Source of the DNA: Heterodontus francisci
Taxonomy: Eukaryota
Reading direction: 5' to 3'
NCBI RefSeq assembly: GCF_036365525.1
Contig: NW_027140453.1
Coordinates: forward strand, 558,001 to 622,000
Length of the DNA: 64,000 bases
The notes under the pieces are model-generated. The model was not told where the DNA came from. It was given only the letters and a program-made list of their open reading frames with translations, and did no database searches. Below, one piece after another: positions 9,358-64,000 of the stretch. Each line of letters opens with the position of its first letter. Position 1 is the first letter of the stretch. Made by a program: the position numbers and the translations under genes.

Positions 9358-9640
9358 ATGGTTCTCCAGTCCCCGGTGGTCAAAAACCCTGGTTCCCGTG
9401 GAGGAAGCCACGTTCCACAGAAGCATTGGGCAGGGCAACATGACTGAGTGTTGCTTGGACTGGTACTTGCAGATTGGTGACTGCATGGAATGGATCAGGT
9501 AGAGTGTACTTTCTTCATTGAACGACAGGAAAAGGATTGAAACCCAGCACGAGACTCAGGCAAACATTTTCACTCTGTCATTGAAAAGCTCCCGGGTCCA
9601 AGCCAACAGCACTTACTACTGTGGGGCTCACAAGGATACA
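9358..9640 (+). pseudogene. Degenerate TCR V segment (Vdelta/TRDV2-like appearance)
   Basis: Reads VLQSP..[frameshift]..EATFHRSIGQGNMTECCLDWYLQ..MEWIR*...NIFTLSLKSSRVQANSTYYCGA. The first Cys is lost and there is a TAG at 9500-9502. A canonical 23-RSS follows. Confidence 0.8.
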
Positions 9641-9679
9641 CACAGTGTAACTAGAATGCAAGGAAACATGGCAAAAACT
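9641..9679 (+). other. 23-RSS
   Basis: CACAGTG + 23 nt (taactagaatgcaaggaaacatg) + GCAAAAACT. Confidence 0.9.
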
Positions 9680-9834
9680 TGGGAATTGTGTAATACACCT
9701 AACCCCAGTCTCTGGGAGTACGGTGGCACAGCTGTTATTTTACAGGGACTAGTAATCCAGAGGCCTCGACCAAATGATCCAGAGCACAGGAGTTCAAATC
9801 CCACCACAGCAGCTGGGGGAATCTAATTAAACAA

Positions 9835-10245
9835 ACACCACCTTAAATATTCACTCCCTCCGCCACCGACGCACAGTGGCAGCAGTTTGTACCAGCTACA
9901 AGATGTACTGCAGTAACGCACCAAGGTTCCTTTGACAGCACCGTCCAAACACATGAGCTCTACCAACTAGAAGGACAAGGGCAGCAGACGCATGGGAACA
10001 TCACCGTCTGCAAGTTCCCTTCCAAGTCACACACCATCCTGACTTGGAACTATATCACCGTTCCTTCACTTTCGTGGGTCAAAATCCTGGAACACCCTTT
10101 CAAACAGCACTGTGGGTGTACCTACCCCACATGGACCTAGTGGTTCAAGAAGGTAGCTCACCACCACCTTCTCAAGGGCGATTAAGGATAGCCGATAAAT
10201 GCTGGCCTCAACCAGCGTCGCCCAAAATCTCATGAATGAATTAAA
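9835..10245 (+). mobile_element. 3' fragment of the same LINE as 6790-7206 (part of a duplicated block)
   Basis: Near-colinear with 6790-7206, including the same tail and the same downstream flank. Confidence 0.8.
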
Positions 10246-10718
10246 AAAGAGAAAATAACCTCAGCAGGGGGCAAAAAAACCTCGAAATAATGCAACAACA
10301 AACTCAACATTAAAAAAATTCCAACAGCAACTTAAGCAGGGAAGAAAACAAAAAACACAACAAAAACCCCAGCAGGGAAAACACAACAACTACCTCAGCA
10401 GGCGAACAACGCCAACAAATTCAACAACAGATCAGCAGGAGATTCAAGCACCAACAAATTCAACAACCTCAGTCGGAGAAAAACACCAGCAAATACAACA
10501 ACAAATACAACAACAACTTTAGCAGCAGAGCGATACCAACAAATGCAACGACAACTACTGGCAGCCAATGGTAGAGAGAGGGGTGTGGGATCCCCATCAG
10601 GGAGGGAGGTGTTGGACAAACCTGAATCACTTGCTTGAGTCTTCATGTGGCTTCTCACAGGACTCAACTCTCTTCTTTCCACTGATTTCCCAATTGCAGG
10701 ATCAGCTTCCAGTGGAAG

Positions 10719-11211
10719 ATGTATCTGTTACTGAGTCTCATGGTCTTATTTCAAAGTAAGGGATCTTTCTCACCACCACCCCACACACCCATTGTTTGTG
10801 TTAACAGCTCTCTTTCTTATTTTCTTTCTCTGTATCTTTCTCTCCTTCCTTCATTCTTCACATCCCAGTTTGTCCCTGTTCACTGACCTTCTTCTCTCCC
10901 GGTCTCTTCCCGCAGGCGCGATCTCAGCGAGGGTCCACCAGACTCACACCGCCGTCTCCAGATTTCCTGGGGAGGGAGTGGGACTGGAGTGCCATGTGGA
11001 GGGTGAGAGTAGCGGTTACATGTTCTAGTACAGACAGGACCCGGGGAAGGAGCCGCGGCTGATGTTTTACTCTGCAGCTACACCAGGTGTGAACTCAGAG
11101 GGGATGGTGGAGGGTTTCAATGCCAAACGACCGACTGGTTCCCAGTTCAACCTGGAGTCCACCAGCCTGCGGGAGAATCACTCGGCCCTGTATTTCTGTG
11201 CCTGGAGTCTG
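10719..11211 (+). pseudogene. TRBV: TCR beta V segment, TRBV30-like family, nonsense pseudogene (leader 10719-10755, V exon 10916-11211)
   Basis: Leader MYLLLSLMVLFQ|gtaagg and acceptor cccgcag|. V reads SAISARVHQTHTAVSRFPGEGVGLECHVEGESSGYMF*YRQDPGKEPRLMFYS...RPTGSQFNLESTSLRENHSALYFCAWS; the conserved Trp codon has become TAG (11026-11028). Confidence 0.93.
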
Positions 11212-11250
11212 CACAGTGACTCAGAGAGACGCAGCAGTTCAACAAAAACA
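11212..11250 (+). other. 23-RSS
   Basis: CACAGTG + actcagagagacgcagcagttca (23 nt) + ACAAAAACA. Confidence 0.95.
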
Positions 11251-11359
11251 CCAACAGAAACACCTGTTTCAGATAAAAGCCTGCAGCTCTGTATCCTGTT
11301 CGGTTTATCTGTTGCAGTGTGAACATGTCTTCCACATGAAGACACAGAAAGATGTTCAA

Positions 11360-11855: not shown

Positions 11856-11964
11856 TTCCCTGCAGCTGGAGCGAGGAGCAGGAACACCAACACTGTGGGA
11901 CTAGTCAGTGGAACTGGGGAACTGACTCCTGGGTGAGGAGCAGCTTTTCTTTGTGATCCTCATC

Positions 11965-12290: not shown

Positions 12291-12384
12291 ACTGTTTCGA
12301 AGTACAGGCGCTGCTGTAATGCAGGAAGTGTGGCAGCCAGTTTCCACAAGGCAAGATCCCACGAACTGACAATGTGCAGATCCT

Positions 12385-14050: not shown

Positions 14051-14099
14051 CACTGACAAATGGGGAAATTGCACAACTTGTTGAGGTTGATGGGAATTC

Positions 14100-17368: not shown

Positions 17369-18170
17369 AAAATAACTTTCCTTTCAGTGCAGCAGCTTTT
17401 TCGGGAGCAGAGTGTGAGCGAGTGAGCAGCTGGGAAAGTCAGTTTGAAAGTAAATTTAAAATCCTTTTGTTTTTCGGCGGAGGCCGGGGGCTGCTGGGTA
17501 AGTAAAACACTATATATTTGGGCGGTTTAAAATAACTTTCCTTTCAGTGCAGCAGCTTTTTCGGGAGCAGAGTGTGAGCGAGTGAGCAGCTGGGAAAGTC
17601 AGTTTGAAAGTAAATTTAATTTCCTTTTGTTTTTCGGCGGAGGCCAGGGGGCTGCTGGGTAAGTAAAACACTATATATTTGGGCGGTTTAAAATAACTTT
17701 CCTTTCAGTGCAGCAGCTTTTTCGGGAGCAGAGTGTGAGCGAGTGAGCAGCTGGGAAGGTCAGTTTGAAAGTAAATTTAAAATCCTTTTGTTTTTCGGCG
17801 GAGGCCAGGGGGCTGCTGGGTAAGTAAAACCCTATATATTTGGGCGGTTTAAAATAACTTTCCTTTCAGTGCAGCAGCTTTTTCGGGAGCAGAGTGTGAG
17901 CGAGTGAGCAGCTGGGAAAGTCAGTTTGAAAGTAAATTTAAAATCCTTTTGTTTTTCGGCGGAGGCCGGGGGCTGCTGGGTAAGTAAAACACTATATATT
18001 TGGGCGGTTTAAAATAACTTTCCTTTCAGTGCAGCAGCTTTTTCGGGAGCAGAGTGTGAGCGAGTGAGCAGCTGGGAAAGTCAGTTTGAAAGTAAATTTA
18101 ATTTCCTTTTGTTTTTCGGCGGAGGCCAGGGGGCTGCTGGGTAAGTAAAACACTATATATTTGGGCGGTT
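17369..18170 (+). repeat. Five near-identical ~160-bp tandem monomers in the CR1 5' UTR
   Basis: Units start at 17369, 17529, 17690, 17851 and 18011. Confidence 0.95.
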
Positions 18171-21100
18171 TCTGAACCCGAGATACCACACTTGTAGTGT
18201 CTCCCACCCGCCCTCCTCCTCTAACCAAAAAAAAAGGACTCGGTGGGGTGTTTATAAGGTAAGGCTTTTTCGATTTCTCTGGTTTTATTGTGATTGGTAA
18301 AAACTTTTCGTTTCTTTTTCATTTAACTAAGTTTAAACTTAAGATTAAAAATGGCAGGAGATCTCAGACCCGTATCATGCTCCTCTTGCTCAATGTGGGA
18401 GCTCAGGGACATGGCTGATGACCCTGACTCCTTCACGTGCAGGATGTGTGTCCAGCTGCAGCTCTTGTTAGACCGCATGACGGCTCTCGAGCTGCGGATG
18501 GACTCACTTTGGAGCATGCGCGATGCTGAGGAGGTCGTGGATAGCACGTTTAGTGAATTGGTCACACCGCAGATTAGGATTGCTGAGGGAGAAAGGGAAT
18601 GGGTGACCAAAAGGCAGAGAAAGAGCAGGAAGGCAGCTCAGGAGTCCCCTGCGGTCATCTCCCTCCAAAACAAGTATACCGTTTTGGATACTGTTGAGGG
18701 AGATGGCTCACCAGGGGAAGGCAGCAGTAGCCAGGTCCATGGCACCGTGGCTGGCTCTGCTGTTCAGAAGGGCGGGAAAAAGAGTGGAAGGGCTATAGTC
18801 GTAGGGGATTCGATTGTAAGGGGAGTAGATAGGCGGTTCTGTGGTCGAAAACGAGGCTCCCGAATGGTATGTTGCCTCCCAGGTGCACGGGTTAGGGACG
18901 TCTCAGATCGGCTGCAGAACATTCTAAAGGGGGAGGGTGAACAGCCAGTTGTCATTGTGCACATCGGCACTAATGATATAGGTAAAAAACGGGATGAGGT
19001 CCTATAAGCAGAGTTTAGGGAGTTAGGAGCCAAGTTAAAAAGTAGGACCTCAGAGGTAGTAATCTCAGGATTACTACCAGTGCCACGTGATCGTCAGAGT
19101 AAAAATGAAGGAATAGTCAGGATGAATGCGTGGCTTGAGAGATGGTGCAGGAAGGAGGGGTTCAGATTTTTGGGACATTGGGACCAGTTCTGGGGGAGGT
19201 GGGACTATTACAAATTGGACGGTCTACACCTGGGCCGGACTGGAACCAATGTCCTTGGAGGTGCTTTTGCTAACGCTGTTGGGGAGGGTTTAAACTAATG
19301 TGGCAGGGGGATGGGAACCAATTGAGGTCAGTTGACAGTAAGGAGGTAGTAACAAAAGCCTGTAAGGAACTAGATAATGAAGTCAGTGTGACTAAGGGGA
19401 AGAGCAGGCAGGGAGCAGATGATGAATATAAAGGGACTGGTGGTCTGAGGTGCATTTGTTTTAATGCAAGAAGTGTAGTAGGTAAGGCAGATGAACTTAG
19501 GGCTTGGATTAGTACCTGGGAGTATGATGTTATTGCTATTACTGAGACTTGGTTGAGGGAAGGGCATGATTGGCAACTAAATATCCCAGGATATCGATGC
19601 TTCAGGCGGGATAGAGAGGGAGGTAAAAGGGGTGGAGGAGTTGCATTACTGGTCAAAGAGGATATCACAGCTGTGCTGAAGGAGGGCACTATGGAGGACT
19701 CGAGCAGTGAGGCAATATAGACAGAACTCAGAAATAGGAAGGGTGCGGTAACAATGTTGGGGCTGTACTACAGGCCTCCCAACAGCGAGCGTGAGATAGA
19801 GGTACAAATATGTAAACAGATTATGGAAAGATGTAGGAGCAACAGGGTGGTGGTGATAGGAGATTTTAATTTTCCCAACATTGACTGGGATTCGCTTAGT
19901 GTTAGAGGTCCAGATGGAGCAGAATTTGTAAGGAGCATCCAGGAGGGTTTTCTAGAGCAGTATGTAAATAGTCCAACTCGGGAAGGGGCCATACTGGACC
20001 TGGTGTTGGGGAATGAGCCCGGCCAGGTTGTTGAAGTTTCAGTAGGGGACTACTTTGGGAATAGTGATCACAATTCCGTAAGCTTTAAAATACTCATGGA
20101 CAAAGACGAGAGTGGTCCTAAAGGAAGAGTGCTAAATTGGGGGAAGGCCAACTATACCAAAATTCGGCAGGAGCTGGGAAATGTAGATTGGGAGCAGCTG
20201 TTTGAAGGTAAATCCACATGTGATATGTGGGAGGCTTTTAAAGAGAGGTTGATTAGCGTGCAGGAGAGACATGTTCCTGTGAAAATGAGGGATAGAAATG
20301 GCAAGATTAGGGAACCATGGATGACAGGTGAAATTGTGAGACTAGCTAAGAGGAAAAAGGAAGCATACATAAGGTCTCGGCGGCTGATGAAAGACGAAGC
20401 TTTGAAAGAATATCGGGAATGTAGGACCAATCTGAAACGAGGAATTAAGAGGGCTAAAAGGGGTCATGAAATATCTTTAGCAAACAGGGTTAAGGAAAAT
20501 CCCAAAGCCTTTTATTCATATATAAGGAGAAAGAGGGTAACTAGAGAAAGGATTGGCCCACTAAAGGACAAAGGAGGAATGTTATGCTTGGACTCAGAGA
20601 AAATGGGTGAGATTCTAAACGAGTACTTTGCATCGGTATTCACCGAGGAGAGGGACATGACGGATGTTGAGGTTAGGAACAGATGTTTGATTACTCTAGG
20701 TCAAGTCGGCATAAGGAGGGAGGAAGTGTTGGGTATTCTAAAGGGCATTAAGGTGGACAAGTCCCCAGGTCCGGATGGGATCTATCCCAGGTTACTGAGG
20801 GAAGCGAGAGAGGAAATAGCTGGGGCCTTAACAGATATCTTTGCAGCATCCTTAAACACGGGTGAGGTCCCGGAGGACTGGAGAATTGCTAATATTGTCC
20901 CCTTGTTTAAGAAGGGTAGCAGGGATAATCCAGGTAATTATAGACCGGTGAGCCTGACGTCAGTGGTAGGGAAGATGCTGGAGAAGATACTGAGGGATAG
21001 GATCTATTCCCATTTGGAAGAAAATGGGCTCATCAGTGATAGGCAACATGGTTTTGTGCAGGGAAGGTCATGTCTTACCAACTTAATAGAATTCTTTGAG

Positions 21101-21206
21101 GAAGTGACAAAGTTGATTGATGAGGGAAGGGCTGTCGATGTCATATACATGGACTTCAGTAAGGCGTTTGATAAGGTTCCCCATGGCAGGCTGATGGAGA
21201 AAGTGA
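17369..21206 (+). mobile_element. CR1 LINE with intact 5' end: 5' UTR tandem monomers, ORF1 and ORF2 up to RT; 3'-truncated
   Basis: ORF1 (18351-19298) has a CxxC..CxxC zinc finger/coiled coil and SGNH esterase motifs (GDSIVRG, PGARV, HIGTND, DGLHL), with a premature TAA at 19005-19007. ORF2 has APE motifs (NARS, ITETW, GDFN, SDH) and RT motifs (NYRPVSLTS, QHGF, DFSKAFDKV), with a premature TAG at 19718-19720. Confidence 0.96.
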
Positions 21207-22283
21207 TAGCTGATGGAGAAAGTGATGGAGAAAGTGAAAGAGAAAGGAATAGCTTGATGGATGTTTAAAATAGAGGCTATTGCCTCTGGATCTCTCCTGA
21301 TGTTTCCATCTCCATACCTATCTCCTATATGTTTGTGCACACAGCAGTGAAGGATTACATCAAATTCATATATCTTACATTCTCCCTTTCAATCCACCCC
21401 AACAATCTCTCTCTCTCTCTCCAACCCTGTCCCTCTCTACTGCCCGCTCTCTGTCTGCATATCTAACCCTCTCTCCCTCTGTCTCACTCCTAGTGTCAGA
21501 GAGAGCAGGAGGAAGAGACGGAGAGAGGAAGACAGAGAGAGAATTTAGAAGGAACTGTACTCTGTTCCTAAGCTGAACCTGCACTCGGAGTGTTTGAGGG
21601 GCTACATTAATCGGCCGTGTACAGTCCTTTATCTGGCTGTGAAGAAGCAGAGCATGTTCAGGACTCAACGGGTCAAAGGGAACGATTCACTCCTGTCTGC
21701 TACGGGAAAGAGAGACTGACCTTAACATCAATGCCGCGTTTGACCGAGTGTGACAGCGAGGAGACCGAGTAAAACTGAAGTCAGTGGGAATCTGCTGGTT
21801 GGAATTATACTGAGCACAAAGGAAGATGGTTGTGGTTGTTGGAGGTCAATCATCTCAGTTCCAGGACATCACTGCAGGAAAATAGAGACAAGATAGATGA
21901 AAACTTTCTGTCTGTCAGAAAAAGTGAAATGGTCAAACAATGTTGTTATTGGAGAGGTCTGGCCTCCATCTGATTCCATTCAGACAGACAGACAGATATC
22001 AATATAAATGAAGACATATATTTGCCTGGGTTACAGATGGAAGACTGAACATTCCCTTCGGTCTTGTTACTAGCTATCAGCAGCTGTGTACAATTTCTAA
22101 TTGCACTGGTTTGATGTGGGTAATATTTATGTTTGTAAGGATGGGGTGAATCTTATAACAATCTCCCCGAGATGAAGTGGGATTGAGGGATTGGAGTAAA
22201 GGTCAGTAACAGTGCAATGCACTTTACACGACTGAGTAACAAACATTGTTGTGTTAAAGTTTAATAAATCACACTTGTGTTGC

Positions 22284-23217: not shown

Positions 23218-23639
23218 TTGCTGATATATATTTTTTAATGATATGGATTGTTTTTCTCACAGGATTTTCGATTGTAATTTCCTTTATTTTGGCTGATGTA
23301 TAGAATATAAGGGCAGGGAGGTTATGCTGGAACTGCATAAAACACTAGTTAGACCACAGCTAGAGAACTGTGTACAGTTCGGGTCAGCACATTACAGGAA
23401 GGATGTGATCACACTAGCGAGGGTACAGAGTAGATTTACAAGGGATGTTGTCAGGAATGGAGAATTTTAGCTATGAGGAAAGATTGGACAGGCTGGTGTT
23501 GTTTTCTTTGAAACAGAGGAGGCTGAGGGGAGATTTAATGGAGGTGTGTAAAATGATGATGGGCCCAGATTGAGTGGATCGGAAGGACCGATGGAGAATA
23601 ACCCAAGCTCTCCAAGACATCCATATACCTGAAGGAACT

Positions 23640-26600
23640 GAAATAAAGACAGAGAGAACGAGGGACAGAGAGAGATAGAGGGGGAGAGATATAGAGAGTC
23701 TCAGCGACAGAGAGATAGGGCAAGGAGTGATGGGGGGTAAAGAGAGAGAGAGAAGGAGAGAGAGAAGGAGAGAGAGGGACAGACAAAGAGAAGGAGAGAG
23801 GGAGTGACAGAGAGGGAATGATAGCTGGAGGGACAGAGAGAGACACAGAGAGAGAGGCAGAGACAGAGATAGCAGGAGAGAGACGGAAAGACAGAAAGGG
23901 AATGACAGATGGAGGGCCATACAGAGAGACAGAGAGAGTGGCAGAGACAAAGATAGAAGGAGAGCGAGCGAGTATCAGGAAGGGAAAGACAAATTGAGGG
24001 ACAGAGAGAGAGACAGAGAGAGAAGGAGAGAGATGGAGTGACAGGGAGGGAAGGATAGATGGTGGGATAGAGAGACGGAGAGACAGAGAGGGAAAGACAG
24101 ATGGAGGGACAGAGAGAGAGACAGAGAGAGTGGCAGAGACAGAAATAGAAGGAAAGAGAGGGATTGCCAGGAAGGAAAGGACAGATGGAGAGACAGAGTG
24201 AGAGACAGAGAGAGAAGGAGAGAGATGGAGTGACAGGGAGGGAAGGACAGATGGAGGGATAGAGAGAGAGACAGAGAGCGAGACAGAGACAGAGTTAGAA
24301 GGAGACAGAGGGAGTGACGGGGTGGTGGAGGGAGACAGATGAAGAGACAGAGAGAGAGAGAAGGAGAGAGATGGAGAGACAGGGAGGGAAAGACAGATGG
24401 AGAGACAGAGAATGAGAGGCAGAGATGGAAGGAGAGAGATGGCGTGACAGGCAGGGAAAGACAGATGGAGAGACAGAGAGGAAGACAGAGAGAGAAGGAG
24501 AGAGAGGGAGTGTCAGGGAGAGAAAGACAGATGGAGGGACAGAATGTGAGGGAGAGAGATAGAAGGAGAGGGTGGGAGTGACACAGAGGGTAATACAGAT
24601 GGAGGGACAGAGAGAGAGACAGATATAGAGATAAAAGGAGTGAGAGTGAGTGACAGGGGGTGGGGAAGACAGATGGAGAGACAGAGAGAGAGAGACGGAG
24701 AGATGGAGAGAGATGGAGTGACTGGCAGGGAAAGATAGATGGAGCGACAGATAGAAAGACAGAGAGAGAAGGAGAGAGAGGGAGTGTCAGGGAGGGAAGG
24801 ACATATGGAGGGATAGAGTGAGAGACAGAGAGACAAGGAGAGAGAGGGAGTGTCAAAGAGGGAAGGGCAGATGGAGAGACAGAGAGATAGAGACAGTGAT
24901 GGAAGGAGAGAGAGGGAGGGACAGAGAGGGAAAGACAGATGGAGGGTAAGAGAGAGAGTGAGAGAGATAGAAGGAGAGAGATGGAGTGACAATGAGGGAA
25001 GGACAGATGGAGGGACAGAAGGAGAGAGACAGAGATAGAAGGAGAGAGATGGAGTGACGGAGGGGGGGGGAGAAGACAGATGGAGGGACAGAGAGAGAGA
25101 GAGACAGAGACAGAAGGAGAGATATGGAGAGACAGAGAGGGAAAGAGAGATGGAGAGACAGAGAGTGAGAGGCCGTGATGGAAGGTGAGAGATGGAGTGA
25201 CAGGCAGGGAAAGACAGATGGAGAGACAGAGAGAAAGACAGAGAGAGAAGGACAGAGAGGGTGTGACAGGGAGGGAAGGACAGATGGAGGGATAGAGAGC
25301 GAGAGACAGAGACAGAGTTAGAAGGAGAAAGAGGGAGTGACGGGGTGGGGAGGGGGGAGACAGATGGTGAGACAGTGAGAGAGAGAGAAGGAGAGAGATG
25401 GAGAGACAGAGAGGGAAATACAGATGGAGAGACAGAGAGAAAGACAGAGAGAGAAGTACAGAGAGGGAGTGTCAGGGAGAGAAAGACAGATGGAGGGCCA
25501 GTGTGTGAGGGAGAGAGATAGAAGGAGAGGGTGGGAGTGACAGAGAGGGTAATACAGATGGAGGGACAGAGAGAGAGACAGAGATAGAGATAAAAGGAGA
25601 GAGAGTGAGTGACAGGGGGTGGGAAAGACAGATGGAGAGACAGAGAGAGAGAGACGGAGAGAAGGAGAGAGATGGAGTGAGGGGGAGGGAAGGACAGATG
25701 GAGGGACAGAGAGTGAGAGGCAGAGATGGAAGGAGAGAGAGGGAGTGTCAGGGAGAGAAAGACAGATGAAGGGACAGAGTGAGAGAGACGGAGAGAAGGA
25801 GAGAGATGGAGTGAGAGGGAGGGAAGGACAGATGGAGGGGCAGAGAGAGAGATACAGAGATAGAAGGAGAGAGAGGGTGGGACTGAGAGGGAAGACAGAT
25901 GGAGGGACAGAGAGAGAGAGAGATAGATAGATAGAAGGAGAGAGATGGAGTGACAGGGAAGGAAGGACAGATGGAGGGACAGAGAGAGAGAGAGAGACAG
26001 CGATAGAAGGAGAGAGATGGAGTGACAGTGTGGGAAGGACGATGGAGGGATAGAGTGAGAGACAGAGAGGCAAGGAAAGAGAGGGAGTTTCAGGGAGGGA
26101 ATGGCAGATGGAGGGATAGAGAGAGAGACAGAGATAGAAGGAGAGAGAGGGAGGGACAGAGAGGGAAAGACAGATGGAGGGAAAGAGAGAGAGATAGAAG
26201 GAGAGAGATGGAGTGACAATGAGGGAAGGACAGATGGAGGGACAGAGGGAGAGAGACAGAGATAGAAGGAAAGATATGCAGAGATAGAGAGGGAAAGAGA
26301 GATGGAGAGACAGAGAGTGAGAGGCCGTGATGGAAGGTGAGAGAGGGAGTGACAGGCAGGGAAAGACAGATGGAGAGCCAGAGAGAGAGACAGAGCGAGA
26401 AGGAGAGAGAGGGTGTGACAGGGAGGGAAGGATAGATGGAGTGATTGAGAGAGAGAGACAGAGATAGAAGCAGAGAGTGGGTGTGACAGGGAGGGAAAGA
26501 GAAGTGGAGGGACAGCGAGATAGACAGGGATAGAGAGAGAAGGAGAGAGAGGGTGTGACGCGGAGGGGAAGACAGATGGAGGGATAGAGTGAGAGGCAGA

Positions 26601-29600
26601 GAGAGAAGGAGAGAGATGGAGTGACAGGGAGGGAAGGACAGATGGAGGGATAGAGAGAGAGACAGAGAGCGAGGCAGAGACAGAGTTAGAAAGAGAAAGA
26701 GGGAGTGACGGGGTGGGGGGGGAGACAGATGAAGAGACAGAGAGAGAGAGAGAAGGAGAGAGATGGAGAGACAGAGAGGGAAAGACAGATGGAGAGACAG
26801 AGAGTGAGAGGCAGAGATGGAAGGAGAGAGAGGGAGTGTCAGGGAGAGAAAGACAGATGGAGGGACAGAGTGTGAGGGAGAGAGATAGAAGAAGAGGGTG
26901 GGAGTGACAGAGAGGGTAATATAGATGGAGGGACAGAGAGAGAGACAGAGATAGAGATAAAAGGAGTGAGAGTGAGTGACAGGGGGTGGGGAAGACAGAT
27001 GGAGAGACAGAGAGAGAGAGACGGAGAGAAGGAGAGAGATGGAGTGACTGGGAGGGAAGGACAGATGGAGCGACAGATAGAAAGACAGAGAGAGAAGGAG
27101 AGAGAGGGAGTGTCAAAGAGGGAAGGGCAGATGGAGAGACAGAGAGATAGAGACAGTGATAGAAGGAGAGAGAGGGAGGGACAGAGAGGGAAAGACAGAT
27201 GGAGGGTAAGAGAGGGAGTGAGAGAGATAGAAGGAGAGAGATGTAGTGACAATGAGGGAAGGACAGATGGAGGGACAGAGGGAGAGAGACAGAGATAGAA
27301 GCAGAGAGATGGCGTGACGGAGGGGGGGAGAAGACAGATGGAGGGACAGAGAGAGAGAGACAGAGATAGAAGGAGAGATATGGAGAGACAGAGAGTGAGA
27401 GGCAGTGATGGAAGGTGAGAGATGGAGTTACAGGCAGGGAAAGACAGATGGAGAGACAGAGAGAAAGACAGAGAGAGAAGGACAGAGAGGGTGTGACAGG
27501 GAGGGAAGGGCAGATGGAGGGATTGAGAGAGAGAGACAGAGATAGAAGCAGACAGTGGGAGTGACAGGGCGGGAAAGAGAAGTGGAGGGACAGAGAGAGA
27601 GACAGAGATAGAGATAGAAGGAGAGAGAGGGTGTGACGGGGAGGGGAAGACAGATGGAGAGACAGAGAGAGAGAGACAGAGAGAGAAGGAGAGAGGGGGA
27701 GTGACAGGGAGGGAAGGACAGATGGTGGGATAGAGAGACGGAGAGACAGAGAGGGAAAGACAGATGGAGGGACAGAGAGAGAGAGACAGAGAGAGTGGCA
27801 GAGACAGAGATAGAAGGAAAGAGAGGGATTGCCAGGAAGGAAAGGACAGATGGAGGGACAGAGTGAGAGACAGAGAGAGAAGGAGAGAGATGGAGTGACT
27901 GGGAGGGAAGGACAGATGGAGGGACAGAGAGTGAGAGGCAGAGATGAAATGAGAGAGAGGGAGTGACAGGCAGGGAAAGATAGATGGAGCGACAGATAGA
28001 AAGACAGAGAGAGAAGGAGAGAGAGGGAGTCACAGAGAGGGAAAGACTGTTGGAGGGACAGAGAGTGAGAGGCAGAGATGGAAGGAGAGAGAGGGAGTGT
28101 CAGGGAGAGAAAGACAGATGTAGGGACAGAGTGAGAGAGACGGAGAGAAGGAGAGAGATGGAGTGAGAGGGAGGGAAGGACAGATGGAGGGGCAGAGAGA
28201 GAGATACAGAGATAGAAGGAGAGAGAGGGTGGGACTGAGAGGGAAGACAGATGGAGGGACAGAGAGAGAGAGAGATAGATAGATAGAAGGAGAGAGATGG
28301 AGTGACAGGGAAGGAAGGACAGATGGAGGGGCAGAGAGAGAGAGATACAGAGATAGAAGGAGAGAGAGGGAGGGACTGAAAGGGAAAGACAGATGGAGGG
28401 ACAGAGAGAGAGAGAGAGATAGATAGAAGGAGAGAGATGGAGTGACAGGGAGGGAAGGACAGATGGAGGGACAGATAGAGAGAGAGACAGCGATAGAAGG
28501 AGAGAGATGGAGTAACAGGGAGGGAAGGACAGATGGAGGGATGGAGTGAGAGACAGAGATAGATGAGAGAGAGGGTGTGTCTGGGTGGGAAAGACAGATG
28601 GAGGGACAGAGTGAGAGACAGAGAGAGAAGGAGAGAGGTGGTGTGTCAGGAAGGGAAAGGCAGATGGAGCGACAGAGTGGGAGACAGAGCGAGAAGGAGA
28701 GAGATGGAGTGACAGGGAGGGAAGGACTGATGGAGGGATAGAGAGATAGAGAGAGAGAGATAGAAGGAGAGAGAGGTAGTGTCAGGGAGGGAAAGGCAGG
28801 TGGAGAGACAGAGAGAGAGAAAGACACATGGAAGGAGAGAGAGGGAGTCACAGAGAGGGGAAGACTGTTGGAGGGATAGAGAGAGACAGAGATAGAAGGA
28901 GAGAGAGGGAGTGTCAGGGAGGGAAAGACAGATGGAGGGACAGAGAGAGAGGCAGAGAGAGAAGGAGAGAGATGGAGTGACAGGGAGGGAAGGACAGATG
29001 GAGGGACAGAGAGAGAGGCAGAGAGAGAAGGAGAGAGATCGGGTGATGGTGGGGGCGGGAGCGGCGAGACTGATGGAGTGACAGAGAGAGAAGGAGAGAG
29101 TGGGAGAGACAGAGTGAAAGACAGATGGAGAGAAAGAGAGAGAGAGGCAGAGATGCAAGCAGTGAGGGAGTCACAGGTAGGGAAAGACAGATGGACAGAC
29201 AGAGAGAGAGACAAAGATAGAAGGAGAGAGAGGGAGTGTCAGGGAGGGAAAGACAGATGCAGGGACAGAGAGAGAGAGACAGAGAAAAAAGGGAGAGAGA
29301 GGGAGTGTCAGGGAGGGAAAGACAGATGGCGGGACAGAGAGAGAGGGAGAGATAGAAGGAGAGAGAGGGAGAGACAGAGAGGGAAAGACAGATGGAGGGA
29401 TAGAGAGAGACAGAGATAGAAGGAGAGAGAGGGAGTGTCAGGGAGGGAAAGACAGATGGAGGGACAGAGAGAGAGACAGAGAGAGAAGAAGAGAGAGGGA
29501 GTGTCAGGGAGGGAAAGACAGATGCAGGGACAGAGAGAGAGAGACAGAGAAAAAAGGGAGAGAGAGGGAGTGTCAGGGAGGGAAAGACAGATGGCGGGAC

Positions 29601-32600: not shown

Positions 32601-33480
32601 GAAGAGAGAGAGATAGAGGGGGAAGAGAGATATAGAGGGGGCAGAGAGAGATAGAGGGGGAAGAGAGTGATGGGGGAGAGAGAGAGGGGGGAGAGAGAGA
32701 GGGGGAGAGAGAGAGGGGAGAGAGAGAGGGGGAGGGGATGAAAGAGAGGGGAGAGGGAGAGAGAGGGGGTGAGAGGGAGTGAGAGGGGGTGAGAGAGGGG
32801 TGAGAAGGGGTGAGAGGGGGAGAGGGCGAGAGAGGGGGAGAGGGCGAGAGAGGGGGAGAGGGCGGGAGAGGGGGCGANNNNNNNNNNNNNNNNNNNNNNN
32901 NNNNNNNNNNNNNNNNNNNNNNNNNNNNNNNNNNNNNNNNNNNNNNNNNNNNNNNNNNNNNNNNNNNNNNNNNNNNNNNNNNNNNNNNNNNNNNNNNNNN
33001 NNNNNNNGGAGAGAGAGTGGGGAGAAAGAGCTAGAGGGGGAGAGGGAGATAGTGGGGTAGATAGAGGGGGGAGAGGGAGAGAAAGGGGGAGAGGGAGAAA
33101 TGGGGAGAGAGAGAGAAAGGGGAGAGAGAGGGGGGAGTTGGAGAGAGAGGGGAGGGAGAGAAAGGGGGAGGGAGAAAGAGGGGGAGAGGGTGAGAGAGTG
33201 GGGAGAAAGAGTTAGAGGGGGAGAGGGAGATAGAGGGGTAGATAGAGGGGGAGAGGCAGAGAGAGCGGGAGAGGGAGATAGAGGGGGAGAGTGAGATGGA
33301 TGGGCCGAGGGAGATCGAGGGGGGAGAGGGAGATCGAGGGGGGAGAGGGAGATTGAGGGGAGAGAGGGAGATCAAGGGGGAGAGGGAGATCAAGAGGGAG
33401 AGGGAGATAGAGGGGAGAGGGAGATAGAGGGGGGCGAGGGAGATAGAGGGGGAGAGGGAGATAGAGGGGGAGAGAGAGAT
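23640..33480 (+). repeat. ~9.8 kb purine-rich (GA) complex satellite with a ~55-65 bp degenerate unit and higher-order duplications; contains N-gap 32878-33007
   Basis: Recurrent gagagagatggagtgacagggagggaaggacagatggagggacagagaga units. The block ~30360-30975 recurs at ~31915-32535. Confidence 0.92.
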
Positions 33481-33722
33481 GGGGAAGGGGTGGTGAACCT
33501 GTGGAATTCTCTGCCGCAGAAGGCAGTGGAGGCCAAGTCATTAAAGATATTCAAGGAGGGAAGAGATATATTTCTTAGTGTCAAAGGGATCAAGGGCTAT
33601 GGGGAGAAAGTAGGAACAGGGTACTGAATTAGCCCATTGGTCATGATCTTTATTGAATGGCAGAGCAGACCCGAGGGGCCGAATGGCCTGCTCCTGCTCC
33701 TATTTTCTATGTTTCTATGAGA
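33480..33722 (+). mobile_element. CR1 3' end fragment
   Basis: RVVNLWNSLPQKAVEA and the CR1 3' UTR (ggccgaatggcctgctcctgctcc...tttctatgtttctatg). Confidence 0.85.
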
Positions 33723-44851: not shown

Positions 44852-45756
44852 CTATGATTTCACTAATTTAACAATGAGATTGAGAGGGTATTTCACCCCC
44901 TTCTTCAGCTCCTGTCTGAATTTAGTCTGGGTCACAATGTAAATACATGTGTTGGTGCAGGAACTGAGAATCTGCAGCATCTTTGATGTTTGTTCTGTGA
45001 TAAAGAGAGGGTCAGTGAGGGAGGAATAATATAGAATATCTGCAATTCGACAATAAATGATAAACACAACACGGGTCACCCATAACAGGATAAAACTGCC
45101 GGATATACTGAAGAGTAAAATAACTGATTTCCTGCGATTCTCCATCTCTGCGTCCTTGTGATTCTCTGCATTGCTGTGGCGCCGGAATCCCCTGCGGACT
45201 TTACTGGAGAATAAAATCCGTCTGACAGTCAGAACATTGAGCAGCAACATCAGAAAGACCGGGACACAAGGGGTTAAAATGTAATTAAACAATTCAAATG
45301 CCCCCCATATGGGGGAAGTAAAGAAACTCAGTTTATAAACACAACCCATGGGAACATTATTAATAATGTAATATTGTTCCTGTGTAAAGTACCAGGGGAG
45401 AGACTCTAAACAGCCCAGCACACTCACTGTTCCAACAACCACAGCCGCCGTTTTCTCGCTGCAATATTTTGTTTTCAGCTTCTCACAACAAATGGCCACA
45501 AATCGATCAAAGGTGAAAGTGACTGTGAGCCAGACAGAAACAACTGTGGATGCAGAAATCAAAACGGCAAGGAGAGAACAGACAGGAGTAATGTTCAGGA
45601 ATGAATATGGAAAATAAATTGATCCAATCCATCTCAATATGGGATTAGTGATAACGACCAGGAGATCAGACACTGCCATTCCCACCAGGTAGACAGTGAT
45701 ACATTTGGAGAGACCGCACTTTCCTCGGGACAGGATCACAATCGCCACCAAGTTAA
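44852..45756 (-). CDS. Class A orphan GPCR, GPR139/GPR142-like (chondrichthyan-expanded type), exon 2
   Basis: Acceptor tctcttccag| at 45757. Reads VNLVAIVILSRGKCGLSKCIT.YLVGMAVSDLL (TM1-2), SVWLTVTFTFDRFVAIC (TM3), FILLW (TM6) and SSCTNTCIY (TM7), with TAG at 44852-44854. The first ~35 aa of the ORF-track protein are intronic. Confidence 0.95.
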
Positions 45757-46842
45757 CTGGAAGAGAGAGAGAAAAGGAAGCAGAGAAATTACTGATCAGA
45801 CCTGGAGACAAAGCAGCAGTTTGACAGGATCTGGGCTGAAATTTCCAGCTTTGTTGCTGCATCGAGCAGTGAAAACTGATTCATTGAACTGGGCAGTGCT
45901 TTGTCAAAGTGAAATGTTTGAAAACACAATTATTAATAATGAATTGGGAAATTGATATAGAAAGTGAATAAAGTCAGCACCGGATATACTGGAAGTACTG
46001 CGTGAGGATGCAGTGTCAGTGGGGAAATGAGAAGGGGTTTTACAGAGATGGAATCCAATGTGTTAATTGAGAATGTGTCTCCAGACTGTTGGTTAGGAAG
46101 GTTTGTGGAGAGCGGGATGGTTTGTTGCTCTGGGTTTAGGGACTGTTATCAAATGGGAAAAGGCTGAAAACTGCAGCGCTGAGTTTGAGTATCAGCCATG
46201 ATCTAGAATGGTGGAGCAGGCCCGAAGGGCTGAATGGCCTCCTCCTACTCATATGTTACTGTATTCCTATCAGGTTGGACGAGGCAGCAGGAGGTGGAGC
46301 CAGTGAGGGTAATTGGGAGGGAGAGAAGGAAAAGGACATGTTGGAGCTGGAGGGGAGACTGGAGCAAATGGTTTGGGAATGTGGATAAACTGAAGCAATG
46401 GATGATGAGGAGACTGAAGATTCAATACAGTGAGAGGAGAGGCTGAGATTCACAGAGAGAGACTGCAGCAGAGTGTTAGAGGAAATCTAATATATAGATC
46501 CCAGCAATACAACTCAATTCATACATTCAAACAATAATCCCTGTGGTAATTGGTGTTGGAGCACAGTTTGTACAATATCGTCAATATATTTAGTTTGTAG
46601 AGGCAATTAAATATAAATGTAAATATATTTCTGATATCAGCCTCGCTCTTTATTGAATTCAGTAGTCACAGAGATTTTAAAGTGCAGTATTTAAATAAAA
46701 AATTTCCATCAGTGTAAAACTGATTCTATTCAGATCATGCAGTCACTAAGTAAGGAACAGGAACTTTCCACAAAACAAAATGAGGCCCTGACAGAAATCA
46801 ACACAGAGGAACAAGTCCAACAGGAAAATGAACACAATCTGG

Positions 46843-47775
46843 AAATGACCTGGAAGAGTGTGTAGAAGGGTGGGTTAGTAAATTTGCGGATGACACTAAG
46901 GTCGGTGGAGTTGTGGATAGTGCCGAAGGATGTTGTAGGGTACAGAGGGACATAGATAGGCTGCAGAGCTGGGCTGAGAGATGGCAAATGGAGTTTAATG
47001 CGGAAAAGTGCGAGGTGATTTACTTTGAAAGGAGTAACAGGAATGCAGAGTACTGGGCTAATGGGAAGATTCTTGGTAGTGTAGATGAACAGAGAGATCT
47101 TGGTGTCCAGGTGCATAAATCCCTGAAGGTTGCTACCCAGGTTAATAGGGCTGTTAAGAAGGCATATGCTGTGTTAGCTTTTATTAGTAGGGGGATCGAG
47201 TTTCGGAGGCACGAGGTCATGCTGCAGCTGTACAAAACTCTGATGAGACCGCACCAGGAGTATTGCGTGCAGTTCTGGTCACCGCATTATAGGAAGGATG
47301 TGGAAGCTATGGAAAGGGTGCAGAGGAGATTTACTAGGATGTTGCCTGGTATGGAGGGAAGGTCTTACGAGGAAAGGCTGAGGGACTTGAGGTTGTTTTC
47401 GTTTGAGAGAAGGAGGAGGAGAGGTGACTTAATAGAGACATTTAAGATAATCAGAGGGTTGGATAGGGTGGATAGTGAGAGTCTTTTTCCTCGGATGGTG
47501 ATGGCAAACACGAGGGGACATAGCTTCAAGTTGAGGGGTGATAGATATAGGACAGATGTCAGAGGTAGTTTCTTTACTCAGAGAGTAGTAGGGGCGTGGA
47601 GCGCCCTGCCTGCAACAGTAGTAGACTCGCCCACTTTAAGGGCATTTAAGTGGTCATTGGATAGACATATGGATGAAAATGGAATAGTGTAGGTCAGATG
47701 GTTTCACAGGTCTGCGCAACATCGAGGGCCGAAGGGCCTGTACTGCGCTGTAATGTTCTATGTTCTATGTTCTAT
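46843..47775 (+). mobile_element. CR1 LINE 3' 0.93 kb in the GPCR intron (antisense to the gene)
   Basis: FADDTK followed by an uninterrupted 259-aa C-terminal frame; (atgttct)n tail. Confidence 0.95.
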
Positions 47776-49095
47776 CAGTGTAGAACTGATTCTATTCTGT
47801 TTATTCAGTCACTAAGTAAGGAATAGGAACTTTCTACAAAACAAAATGAGGACCTGACAGAAATCATCACAGATGATCAAGTCCAACAGGAAAATGAACA
47901 CAATCTGACAGCAGACAACTTCAACTCACAGTTTCTCTCACTAATTGTTCTGGACATTCCAGTACCTTATGATAGCGAATTATTTACACTGCTGCTTCTT
48001 TCTCTTACTTCTGCTTATCTCTTTCCATCGGTTTCGTTCCCCCTGCTCCTTTTCTCCTTCCCTATCTCTCACACCCTGTAAATTGTTACTTAATGATGCT
48101 TTTCACATAGGATTTATTTCTAACATTCTGCGTCTGTGTTCTGTTCACCAGCCCCAGGTTCAATTATTCTATTCTCAGAGTAAGTTTGTTCAACGGTGAA
48201 ACCTCTGTGAATAATTTAATGCATCTACAGAACATTCAAGTCTCCACCTGTTCACCTGCACTCTTCACATCATGTACAACATATGGAATAAACAGGATCG
48301 AAAGCTACTTCCAGACAAACCTCACAGTCATTGAAATTACTTCTCCTGGAATTATAAAGTAATCTGTTAGAATGTGGGATTGTTTAATTAATAAAACACC
48401 AACATCAGCGCTGCAGCTGATAATCTACAGAAAGACTCTTGATTCCAACTGATCGAGTGAAAACCAATAAAACATCATATCAATACTTTCTATTTTACAA
48501 TGTAGTCCAGTGACAGTGAAGGGTCCACAGTGAAGCAGAGAAGGGGAAGTGAAAGTGTCAGCAGCAAACTCAGTTCAGTAGCCAGACTTCTGAAGCAGTG
48601 TCAGACACACACAGAGTGAAATAATGTTTGATAACAGTGATAATCAATAAATACATTGAAATCCCAGTTAAACTGAGCCATGTTATTGGGGAGGGAGGAT
48701 ATTGTTCTGTTCCCTTGTAACACTGAGACTGTGAGATGTCTCATTATCAATCACTAAAAAGATATCATAAAAATATTCCAGGACCGGTTAGATCCACATC
48801 ATGAAAATGTTAAAAACTCCGAATGGTCTGATTATTAATCGTAACGGAGAACATGATTTGAATGCAGTCAATACACAGAATAATCCAGTAAGAATGCCAC
48901 GGTTACTGAAACCAATACAATAAAAGACATGACACATCTCCTGCAGCACTGAAAGAATAGACAATGAGGATATTCCATCAGTAAATTGCTGGAAAAGAAT
49001 AGGTGGCTGTGTAACACACACAGTGAGAAATAATACCGAGTACAGCAGCACAGTTAACATCGATTTACACCATTAACAGCTGAGATTCTGCTTAC

Positions 49096-49165
49096 CAGGA
49101 ACTCCAATTGCTGCAAGTACTGGATAGTAAATGAATATGAACTGATACATTACTGGATATCCCAT
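49096..49165 (-). CDS. GPR139/142-like GPCR exon 1 (MGYPVMYQFIFIYYPVLAAIGVP, phase 1); the spliced protein is 324 aa
   Basis: ATG at 49165 and donor G|gtaagc at 49095. YYPVLAAIGVP-(V)N completes TM1. 70+905 nt = 325 codons including the stop. Confidence 0.92.
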
Positions 49166-57066: not shown

Positions 57067-57079
57067 GGTGCAGATACTC

Positions 57080-57786: not shown

Positions 57787-57835
57787 TCAGTGAATAAACC
57801 ACAACAGTGTCTGTATATCTATTTACCTATCTATC

Positions 57836-58904: not shown

Positions 58905-58943
58905 GGTTTTTGTTGAACTGCTCCATCTCTCTGAGTCACTGTT
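58905..58943 (-). other. 23-RSS with a defective heptamer (AACAGTG)
   Basis: AACAGTG + actcagagagatggagcagttca (23 nt) + ACAAAAACC. Confidence 0.9.
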
Positions 58944-59396
58944 AGGACTCCAGGCACAGAAATACACGGCCGAGTGATTCTCCCGCAGGCTGGAGGACTC
59001 CAGGTTGAACTGGGAGTCAGTTGGTCTCTCGGCGGTGAAACCGCCCACCGTCCCCTCTGGATCTACATAGTTAGCAGTACTGGAGTAAAACATCAACAGC
59101 GGCTCCTTCCCCGGATATTGTCTGTACCAGTACATTCCAGCAGTACTGGTGCCCTCCAATGTGCACCTCAGTTCCACTGCCTCTCCACGCAATCTGGAGA
59201 CTGCGGCGGGAGTCTGGTGGATCGTCTGTGAGTTCACATCTGGGAGAGAGATGGAGAGAAGAGCAGATCAGTAAACAGGAAACTTCTGGGAATGAAAGGG
59301 AGACAGGGAGAAGAGAGGAAAGTTATTAACGATAATCTTTGCATTTCACACTCACTTACAATGAAACAGGATTATCAGACACAGTAATAGATTCAT
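58944..59396 (-). CDS. TRBV: TCR beta V segment, TRBV30-like, open reading frame (leader 59360-59396, V exon 58944-59239)
   Basis: MNLLLCLIILFH|gtaagt ... cccag| YVNSQTIHQTPAAVSRLRGEAVELRCTLEGTSTAGMYWYRQYPGKEPLLMFYS...RPTDSQFNLESSSLRENHSAVYFCAWS. Both Cys and the Trp are intact. Confidence 0.95.
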
Positions 59397-60487: not shown

Positions 60488-60613
60488 TTTTTTTGTTGAA
60501 CTGCTCCATCTCTCTGAGTCACTGTGATCTCTCCAGGCACAGAAATACACGGCCGAGTGATTCTCCCGCAGGCTGGAGGTCTCCAGTTTAAAGTTGTATT
60601 TATTTAGTCTTTG
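60488..60613 (-). pseudogene. TRBV: Truncated TRBV30-like V (FR3 only, 60527-60613) with 23-RSS (60488-60526)
   Basis: QRLNKYNFKLETSSLRENHSAVYFCAWRD, then CACAGTG + 23 nt + ACAAAAAAA. The 5' part is replaced by CR1 sequence from ~60614. Confidence 0.9.
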
Positions 60614-60940: not shown

Positions 60941-61059
60941 CTGTCTTTGTCTCAGCAGTTTCTGCTGACAGTGAATTCTGTATTTTGGGTAAAGAATTCT
61001 CGTGAATTCCCCACCAGATTTCAGTTTATCGCAGCTTTTATTCTCTGTTTTATTCCTAT

Positions 61060-61572
61060 CCACTTCGTCCCCTAGTCTTTGTACAATCAGCTAATGGGAA
61101 CAGTTTTTCTTTGTCTACTTTATCTAAACCTCTCTTCATTTTGTACACTTCTATCAAATCTCCCCTCAATCTCCTTTGCTCCAAGGAGAACAACCCCAGC
61201 TTCACCAACCTAACCATGCAGCTAAACTCTCTCATCCCTGGAACCATTCCAGTAAATCTCCTCTGCACCCTCTCAAGGACCCTACATCCTTCCTCAAGTG
61301 TGGTGACCAGAACCGGGCTCAGTACACAAGTTGGGGCCCAACCAGAACCTCATATATGTTGAGCATACCCTCCCTGCTTTTGTACTTTATACCTCTATTC
61401 ATGAATCCCAAGATCCCATAAGCTTTGCGAACCTCTCTCTCAATATGTCCTGCCAACTTCAAAGATCTATGCACATTAAGCCCCAGGTCCCTCTGTCCTT
61501 GAACACTCTTCAGGCCTGTGTCATTAAGTCAGTATTTCCTCTCTGTCTCCCTTCTGCCAAAATGCATCACCT
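61060..61572 (-). mobile_element. CR1 fragment
   Basis: QRRFTGMVPGM...LGLFSLEQRRLRGDLIEVYK. Confidence 0.85.
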
Positions 61573-62214
61573 GATAGCAATGTAGTTCACTGTTAACTGC
61601 CTCTGAAATGGACTAGCAAGTCATTCAGTTAAGGGAAATTCAGCATAGGTAATGAATTCTTGCCTTGTCAGTGATGTGCGCATCCCTGAATATGTGTTTT
61701 TATATAAAATGTCTCCTTCTTCATTTTTCTTTCACTGTTTTCTCACTTTGCTTCCCCTCTTTACTTCCTTCAGATCATCTGTTTTTGTATATCACAAGTG
61801 TTGGTCAAACCAGTGACGATGAACGAGCAGACTTGGGGAAATCCAGTTGTCTATTTTGTGTGGAATGGTTATGATTTTAATCTGTTTCAGAGTTAGTGGA
61901 ATTGACTATTAGGTAGATGGGTCAAGTCACTGCTGCATTGCTCAGTCAGTCTTGACAGAAGCAAGTTGGACTCAGGCTGCGGTGGAGCTCCATCCCCACC
62001 TCGTGGCTGTCATGTGTAACTACAGGCACCTGAGATTTGCAAAGTGCAATTGATAAAATAGGCATTATGAAGACATGCTTTGAAATTGCTCCGTCTTCCC
62101 ATTTTTTATCCATTGCTTCGGCTGGTGACGCTGGTGACATCGAATTAGATAGAAGATGCAGCATGGATTCAGGCTATTCGGCCCGATGGGACCATGTTCC
62201 AGACTAGCCTGGGG

Positions 62215-62484
62215 CAGATGGTGGTGTACTTGTCATGTCACTGAGCTGGTAATCCAGAGAATGGGGCTAATCTCCAGGGGACATGCGTTCGAATCCCACC
62301 AGGTCAGATGGTGGAATTTAAATTCAATTAATGAATAAATATAATTATTTCATCAGAAAATCTGCAATTGAAAGCTAGTCTCAGTTAAGGGGCCCTGTCA
62401 CCCAGCTGGCTCACTCATGTCTTTTAGGGAAGGGAATCCGCCTTCCTTACCTGGTCTGGTCTACATGTGACTCCAGACCCACAG
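62215..62484 (+). mobile_element. tRNA-derived SINE; related heads at ~9720-9830 and ~49735-49822
   Basis: Head gtaatccagag...gttcgaatcccacc and body ...ccttacctggtctggtctacatgtgactccagacccacag. Confidence 0.6.
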
Positions 62485-63230
62485 AACACAAGAAATAGGA
62501 GCAGGTGTAGACCATATATCCCATCGAGCTTGCTCCGTCATTCAATACAATCATGGCTGATCTTGGGCTTCAATTCCACTTTCCTGCCTACTCCCCATAT
62601 CCCTTGATTTCCTGAGGGATCAGAAATCCCAGCCTTAAATGTATTCAATGAAGGAGCATCCACAACACTCTGGGGTAGAGAATTCCAAAGATTCACAACG
62701 CTTTGAGTGAAGCAATTTCTCCTCATCTCAGTTCGGAATGATTGATCCCCTGTCCTGAGATTTCTCATTACCTCCTTTTTTGAAAAGCCGTGTAACATTT
62801 GTCAGCGTTCAATCCGATGGCACCATTCCTGAATCTAAGGAATTCTGGAAAATCATAGCCAGTGCCTCCACTATCTCTGCAGCTATCTCTTTTAGAACCC
62901 TGGGATGTAATCCATCTGCTCCAGGGGACTTGTCAGATTTTCATCCCTCAAATTTCTCGAACACTTTTTCTCAATTGATATGAAAATCCTTAATTTCCTC
63001 ACTCTTTTTAGCCCCCAGATAACTTCCTATTTCTGGGATGGAACTTGTGTCTTCAACTGTGAAGACAGACACAAAATATTAGTTCAATTCCCCCATTCCC
63101 CATGATAATTTCTCCTGTCTTTACCTCTAAGGGGCCAACATCAACTTTAGCTACTCTCTTACTTTTTATGTAAAAGCTCCTACCATCTGTTTTTATATTG
63201 CTGGTTAGCTTATTCTCACATTTTATTCCC
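62485..63230 (-). mobile_element. CR1 fragments (3' end plus a more 5' ORF2 piece)
   Basis: FTQSVVNLWNSLPQ and a KSPGADGLHPRVLKE-like segment on the minus strand. Confidence 0.75.
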
Positions 63231-63825
63231 ACATCCGATGAAAGAACATAAACAATGTCTTCATCCAGCCCTATCAGTATGAGGTGCTATTTCCTGCTCC
63301 CTAATGTTTTTATCCAGCATCCATTTACATATATCTGGTTATACACATCATTTATTTCTGTGTGCTAGTGAATTCCACATTCTCACCACTCTGTGTAAAT
63401 TCATTTCTTGGAGTTATTAGTGAGTATGATGTATTAATGACCTTCCCTACAAGTGCAGACATCTTCTATTCCTCTACCCTATCATATTCCTTCATAATCT
63501 TGAGCACCTCTATCAGGTCACCCCTCAGCATTGTCCTCAGCACTTCAGGTGTCGTCTAAACAAAGTATATAGAGCTGAGAATTGTGCACAGTGCTCCAGG
63601 TGTGGTCAAACCGTGGTACGGGTTGAAGAGCTGTTCGATGAACCATTATACAGGTGTGGGCAGAGACAGTGTGTGTTGTCTGTCTGGAGGTTGTGGGGAG
63701 TTAGAACATGGGCGTTCTGCCACTCGAACGGGCACTGAACAGATGCAGATCCGCATCCGATCAGCCAGGGCTGCTCTTCACCGAATGCTGGGTTAAATGC
63801 ACCCGTTTGAAGGGAGACGTGTGAG

Positions 63826-63864
63826 GGTTTTTGTCAAGGCGGCCAATGACTCTGAACCGCTGTG
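63826..63864 (-). other. 23-RSS
   Basis: CACAGCG + gttcagagtcattggccgccttg (23 nt) + ACAAAAACC. Confidence 0.93.
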
Positions 63865-64000
63865 TCCCATCACCAGCTGCACAGAAATACACCGCCTCGT
63901 CCGTGGCGTTCACACTCTCCATCGTCAGAGTGGATTTCTTATTGTCCAGAGTCCTGCTAATAACAAACCCGCTCTTAAAACCCTCTTCATACTGAGGTTC
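63865..64000 (-). CDS. TRBV: TCR beta V segment (different family), 3' part; continues beyond the window
   Basis: EPQYEEGFKSGFVISRTLDNKKSTLTMESVNATDEAVYFCAAGDG, open in the visible part; not in the ORF track. Confidence 0.88.

Follow-up and report, generated by a model that had tools for sequence, protein, structure and literature searches.

Converging V segments around a GPCR gene in the horn shark: a probable inverted V array in a repeatedly assembled T-cell receptor beta locus

Among the closest described systems is the T-cell receptor (TCR) beta locus (TRB) of the bamboo shark Chiloscyllium punctatum, which is tabulated as 15 V segments on the plus strand, a C-J-D block on the minus strand, three V's on the minus and two on the plus strand, a D-J-C block on the plus strand and 15 V's on the minus strand (PMC10322711, supplementary file 16). 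Of the 30 outer V's in that table, 27 are marked F, which means transcribed and functional according to the legend of a sister table (PMC10322711). Human TRB contains trypsinogen genes among its V's (PMC7216736), and cartilaginous-fish TCR loci were called translocons in a 2019 review (PMC6795676). The DNA analysed here is a stretch of 64,000 nucleotides from the horn shark Heterodontus francisci (hereafter the window; G000:C407:558,001-622,000, on the 1.57-Mb contig C407, window coordinates counting from 1), in which TCR V segments of opposite orientation converge on a G protein-coupled receptor (GPCR) gene.

The bamboo shark and horn shark loci have an identical mirror order, with outer V's located 3' of the nearest C and opposite to it. 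Because the bamboo shark table has this same order, the placing of V arrays behind their nearest C and facing it is already on record for sharks. The window is probably part of such an array, lying 3' of a D-J-D-J-C unit and in the opposite orientation, in a TCR-beta locus that is repeated 21-23 times in the assembly, and the plus-strand V's of the window are dead copies that likely arrived by inverted duplication. In its locus context the layout is then an ordinary one, dead V's and a passenger gene standing inside an inverted V array.

The TCR-beta locus and the V segments of the window

A D-segment pattern was matched 44 times in the assembly (reversed control, 0), always on the six V-bearing contigs, and grouping by position gave 23 D-J blocks. 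The TCR-beta constant exon was matched 21 times on these contigs, in all cases without stops, and its best single-domain PDB matches were mostly TCR beta chains. Contig C407 alone carries 12 D segments and six open constant exons. When its 220-682 kb region was stitched together, the outer left part was found to consist of a V array on the plus strand followed by C-J-D-J-D on the minus strand (380-406 kb). The inner part contains five V's on the minus and four on the plus strand, and the right part D-J-D-J-C on the plus strand (461-487 kb), then the minus-strand V array in which the window lies. This last unit, the nearest to the window, has 21 J's, one of them with a stop. Self-alignment of the region revealed a large inverted duplication whose arms are 92-99.6% identical; window positions 37.6-64 kb match C407 220-249 kb at 99.5% over the two longest blocks. 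Over the 462 kb, 36 of 56 V rows (two of them frame duplicates) passed the intactness filter. This is a lower bound because the filter scored as not intact an open subfamily with WYRWHP or WYPWHP instead of the usual WYRQ (G000:C407:278,297; 424,030; 446,845; 635,834 and others).

The V-set exons carry a 3' 23-RSS (recombination signal sequence with a 23-base spacer). The D's have a 5' 12-RSS, a 3' 23-RSS and a GGGAC core in cis, as the core is described in PMC11754216. The J's have a 12-RSS, an FGxG motif and a splice to C, and the constant gene has a beta-type C1 domain and a Lys-bearing transmembrane exon. Parts, strands, distances and assembly copy counts are thus direct observations, as is splicing in one public run: in run X1 (one sample, RNA only by guess), C exon 1 was joined to exon 2 with GT..AG and J was spliced to C. 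An apparent GT..AG joint at L009:3199 does not start at J and was left unused. A tree of 16 rows puts the canonical constant beside three beta-type constants of bony vertebrates, at a weak 82/82. A genome search with Pfam C1-set, saturated by immunoglobulin (Ig) and major histocompatibility complex genes, gave no match on the V contigs among the 150 scored of 626. All structural tests that were run identify the locus as TCR-beta. No description of it was found in the literature as judged by titles and abstract starts, and subscription papers, older scans or supplements may hold one.

Re-reading of the window confirmed the positions and strands given for five V's by an earlier sequence-only reading. 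V1 (9350..9679, plus strand) is a decayed pseudogene with a stop codon, a 23-RSS (CACAGTG / GCAAAAACT at 9641) and no Pfam V-set match; its relatives (40 scored of 43 candidates) are all on TCR-beta contigs. V2 (10719..11250, plus strand), a TCR-beta V of the CAWS family with leader and a good 23-RSS at 11212, is a pseudogene with TAG at the conserved Trp, and nine of 14 paralogous V2-type loci examined are open. V3 (58905..59396, minus strand) is an open CAWS-family V with leader. The heptamer of its RSS at 58,943 reads AACAGTG and is likely not cleavable; the 99% paralogue at C407:227,027 has CACAGTG. Relatives of V3 (150 scored of 1,474 candidates) are spread over seven contigs and both strands. 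Its PDB matches include Mel5 TCR beta chains, which we take to use TRBV30, and a word-based homologue search gave no long relatives among 170 candidates. V4 (60488..60600, minus strand) is a 3' stub, the last ~25 codons of a CAWS-family V, with a 23-RSS at 60526. V5 (63826..64000, minus strand) is the 3' part of an intact TCR-beta V with RSS CACAGCG-23-ACAAAAACC at 63864; its leader lies at about window position 64,600 and the gene is complete once 600 bases to the right are added. V5 alone has an open frame, Cys/Trp/Cys, a leader and a CAC heptamer. The nearest named relatives of the window V's come from other sharks and rays, and CAWS-ending V's are also present in the inner arrays.

Four 23-RSS with at most two mismatches were found in the window, where 100 block shuffles gave 0.04 on average and 2 at most. 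The earlier statement that all V's carry a 23-RSS needs correction, as the signals of the five are not all usable. No 12-RSS with up to three mismatches was detected within the 64 kb and 27 probes made from the D's, J's and C's of the actual locus gave no match in it, in agreement with the reported lack of 12-RSS, J and C. The V2-V1 pair forms a block with genes for uromodulin-like D8C-domain proteins, and this V2-V1-D8C block recurs elsewhere, for example at C407 805-818 kb with the V's on the minus strand. The plus-strand V1 and V2 are dead copies that were likely brought, together with the uromodulin-like genes, into the minus array by inverted segmental duplication.

Between the V groups lies an intact class A GPCR gene of 324 amino acids (44852..49165, minus strand; exon 1 49165-49096, exon 2 45756-44852; Pfam 7tm_1), with two exons and a GT-AG intron, as the sequence-only reading had recognised. 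Its closest named proteins are H. francisci members (87-89% identity) of an elasmobranch family named 'probable GPR139', and 2,436 homologues at E <= 1e-30 were found among 6,041 candidates; the family name is an automatic database label and does not imply orthology to true GPR139. No PDB chain resembled it at E <= 1e-10. At least 117 other copies at >= 90% identity were detected (118 scored including that of the window, of 15,682 first-look candidates). Nine copies, including the window's, stand on TCR contigs at 100% identity, and at least 109 stand off them at 90-93%, mostly open. The gene belongs to a very large family and is a passenger in the locus. With 118 scored copies at this identity, loss of the copy on one allele is likely harmless.

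The 12/23 rule and RSS direction fix which joins invert and which delete. The intact D's nearest to V5 are 151 and 160 kb to its left, on the opposite (plus) strand, so that V5 would join the nearest by inversion, with the GPCR turned round and kept. The D's of the mirror unit are 215 and 225 kb away, and a join to them would be a deletion that carries the GPCR and the D8C genes onto an excision circle. By geometry, this is the only productive deletion of the GPCR; a 113-kb deletional join of V5 to a second, broken cassette described below is unproductive. Four units stand to the right of the window, two reachable by inversion and two leaving the coding joint on the circle, and none of these joins spans the GPCR. 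The minus-strand V's of the window lie, like TRBV30, 3' of C on the opposite strand. These data locate the D-J-C partners on the contig and outside the window, the nearest intact one to the left on the plus strand, and uphold the need for inversion, both as predicted from the window alone. The prediction that deletional joining by either group would excise the GPCR, and also the uromodulin-like gene if D-J-C lay to the left, is retained for the mirror join. It is not retained for the nearest left join, which inverts and keeps the GPCR, nor for the plus-strand pair, which is dead.

Alternative readings and the number of units

Each of the nine GPCR copies of the locus is preceded on its own strand by a V3-type segment, 13-15 kb 5', and followed 32-35 kb 3' by a V2-type segment on the opposite strand. 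The V3-GPCR-V2 convergence is a cassette seen nine times on five contigs, and because it recurs in this way it is unlikely to be a misassembly. Of the seven cassettes read, five have an open opposed V2-type segment with a good RSS; in the other two, one of them the cassette of the window, this segment has the stop. The window contains four N runs (130, 148, 504 and 283 bases), where three gaps had been counted; they total 1,065 bases, against 25 kb for a D-J-C block. The inverted paralogous arm, which is free of N, is collinear on both sides of every run, and the same 27 probes gave no match on it.

The sequence-only reading had warned that the contig might be mis-oriented or that D-J-C might be concealed in the gaps, and the four N runs together with a 10-kb satellite between the V groups could invite that suspicion. 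The small size of the runs, the collinear N-free arm devoid of D, J and C, and the nine-fold convergence on five contigs largely refute it, and we hold either event to be highly improbable. The notion of an orphon V cluster without a partner in cis, which had been offered as an alternative, accords with four defective V's out of five in the window. It fails because six D-J-C units stand on the same contig, and with the 12 D segments, the six open constant exons and the V rows that pass the intactness filter its probability is negligible. One may also ask whether deletional joins are a selected means of removing the GPCR and D8C genes from T cells: the gene is intact and at the same place in nine cassettes, the opposed V2-type segment is mostly usable, and V5 can delete it by joining the mirror unit. 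On the other hand, the nearest join keeps the gene, one join takes at most a few of the 118 scored copies on one allele, the complete identity of the nine copies is what recent duplication predicts, and human trypsinogen genes are placed likewise among TRBV genes (PMC7216736). Selection for removal is therefore very unlikely, if slightly less so than a faulty contig.

A more serious alternative is that the layout is real and the copy number inflated, a mirror locus of two to a few units, similar to that of the bamboo shark, having been multiplied by haplotigs or misjoins. The 21 units differ from one another by 0.01-10% across 9.3 kb of J-C flank, and 15 of them remain when units within 0.6% are merged. 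Two triplets and one pair differ by at most 0.2%, the triplets on different contigs; two alleles alone do not account for the triplets, which are recent copies or redundancy. Such near-identical triplets argue for inflation, as do a unit that matches different partners at its D and C ends and the long unbranched contigs of sample S1. Against it, the six units of the single contig C407 differ by 1.1-4.4% over the same 9.3 kb and 15 groups are left at the 0.6% cut. Moreover, in S1 DNA 29 of 33 listed differences equal the mirror unit, and all 27 letters tested in run X1 occur among other assembled units (best single unit, 26). As the S1 contigs carry letters of other assembled units, the unit variants are not private errors. 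Taken together, we judge inflation down to a few units unlikely, though clearly less so than the other alternatives. Multicluster TCR genes were reportedly described in the horn shark from blots by Rast and Litman in 1994. Estimating copy number from read contigs was rejected, as no single-copy control was available and contig depth is not copy number.

Several points weigh against the reading of the window as part of an inverted V array in a locus repeated 21-23 times. The six contigs are separate pieces, and some near-identical copies may be alleles or assembly redundancy. Through the unit, the S1 contigs are long and unbranched (1,372 bases for X1; 416-545 for the DNA runs). A low copy number in that animal could be the cause, but contigs of this kind lose variants. 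The putative insertion of an inverted V2-V1-D8C copy into the minus array is drawn from few recurrences and not from mapped breakpoints. Finally, inversion and deletion are assigned from geometry only, because no V-D-J junction is tied to a given unit.

Two further observations concern the units. One C779 unit (D 1,395,504, C 1,375,453) is a mosaic: its D flank matches C761:1,355,989 with 4 differences in 3 kb and its J-C flank matches C407:380,978 at 0.13%, as unequal crossing-over, gene conversion or a misjoin would produce. The 21 constant exons show only four protein variants and 14 DNA variants in 339 bases, with flanks differing by up to 10%; purifying selection or homogenisation would account for this uniformity.

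If the amplification is true, the unit-specific J and C variants would make the enforcement of one beta chain per cell across units testable in one animal. The choice of the RAG recombinase between near inversion and far deletion would be testable in the same animal.

A second constant gene and other elements

A second, deeply diverged constant gene of TCR type is located at G000:C407:499,500-508,100 on the minus strand, ~50-58 kb to the left of the window, together with a J and a D-like element. A genome search that took the constant part of a catshark model as query found 16 copies of the second constant exon, on the same contigs as the canonical constants. Six more were recovered from six of six stretches fetched at predicted places, which makes 22, and exon 1 is broken in all 22 copies of this assembly. 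Each of the 18 canonical constants with enough contig behind it is faced by a second constant 16-21 kb downstream on the opposite strand. The transmembrane exon of the second constant carries a Lys. Two of its cassettes, both on C407, also contain a J with a 12-RSS and a D-like element that has a 23-RSS and whose 5' signal is decayed; the J was seen at these two places only and in none of 20 further stretches, which are perhaps too short upstream.

Automatic gene models of Scyliorhinus torazame (XP_072356531.1, which includes a CAWS V and a J) and of the whale shark contain open forms. These two share 61% identity, and each is 35-36% identical to the canonical constant. The best non-self BLAST scores of the second constant (P0017) were to Anolis TRBC (43%) and to the canonical constant (36%). 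In the 16-row tree the second-constant pair falls outside the beta group, with no branch at the support mark. Typing by PDB search was abandoned, the matches being swamped by Ig chains. The second constant is missing from the bamboo shark table as far as that file is available; the gaps that follow its two C's, of 34 and 46 kb, would be large enough to hold it (PMC10322711). Titles and abstract starts yielded no description of a second shark beta constant, and subscription papers, older scans or supplements may hold one.

The 3'-inverted V's of amniotes have been placed in a clade of weak support whose sister group is the TCR-epsilon V's of squamates (PMC11754216), and an inverted V behind C is present in both beta and delta loci (PMC12227049). 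A link of the second constant to the amniote inverted V's or to TCR-epsilon is put forward as a hypothesis only. In its widest form, which we regard as possible and distinctly tentative, a second ancient TCR chain gene would reside in the shark beta locus as a D-J-C cassette turned towards the inverted V array, dead here and open in the catshark and whale shark models. The inverted V arrays, including that of the window, would be its V's, and the amniote TRBV30-type V its last remnant, with allelic exclusion operating across at least 10 beta units in this shark. If expressed in other sharks, the second constant would be a TCR chain not described before, and it would explain why an inverted V is conserved behind C-beta.

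The other elements of the window are as follows. A uromodulin-like D8C-domain exon (58..222, minus strand; Cys/GWYR-type frame) is continued left of the window edge by two further exons above the Pfam D8C_UMOD cut-off, and the gene straddles that edge. The family of D8C exons is large, with 146 matches among the 150 candidates scored out of 423; most lie on contigs C325, C1075, C220 and C328, and some are interleaved in TCR-beta contigs. A long interspersed nuclear element (LINE; 18327..21268, plus strand), presumably of CR1 type, encodes an esterase-like ORF1 and an endonuclease/reverse-transcriptase ORF2 (Pfam Lipase_GDSL_2, weak, Exo_endo_phos and RVT_1; ORF, open reading frame). A LINE reverse-transcriptase fragment is found at 35108..37087 on the plus strand (RVT_1, E 1.6e-37). 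Between the two lies a simple-sequence, purine/pyrimidine-skewed satellite (23500..33500, no strand assigned; GC skew 0.67-0.77, low-complexity frames). When 138 frames of the window and 67 from the stretch on its left were scanned with Pfam, they gave only LINE domains, D8C exons and four weak sub-threshold matches. At 17,400-18,200, ~5 tandem copies of a ~160-base unit were noticed as a recurring translated motif, and a short-period tandem repeat at 55,100-57,000 produces long repetitive open frames. Elsewhere in the genome (G000:C46:16.27-16.87 Mb), at least 35 near-identical C1 exons spaced by ~16 kb are likely an Ig light-chain cluster array.

Comparison with known loci

Beyond the shared mirror order, the bamboo shark locus comprises two units with one D each, whereas the horn shark assembly has 21-23 units, mostly with two D's. 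The bamboo shark table, in the part available, lists no second constant type and no passenger genes, both of which are present in the horn shark (PMC10322711). As in human TRB, unrelated genes stand inside the V array (PMC7216736). The amniote 3'-inverted TRBV of the human TRBV30 type resembles the arrangement seen here, with a V 3' of C, in opposite orientation and joined by inversion (PMC7216736, PMC11754216). Amniotes have one to five inverted V's according to these sources; in the horn shark a whole array of many families is inverted, and the mirror unit adds a deletional route.

Bichir TRB, with five tandem V-D-J-C units and few opposite-strand V's, is like the horn shark locus in having several complete units (PMC10322711). 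Its units are all on one strand, whereas those of the horn shark switch strand alternately and outnumber them fourfold. Shark Ig miniclusters likewise consist of many repeated rearranging units, each with its own C, but they have one V and one J where the TCR units have ~20 J's and large shared V arrays (PMC6795676). A minicluster of Ig type, with one V and one J per C, is excluded here by the ~20 J's per unit and the V arrays. Shark TCR loci have been reviewed as translocons, yet the assembly holds 21-23 beta units in alternating orientation. The mirror layout itself is already known in sharks, and the number of units is far above any tabulated for the species compared.

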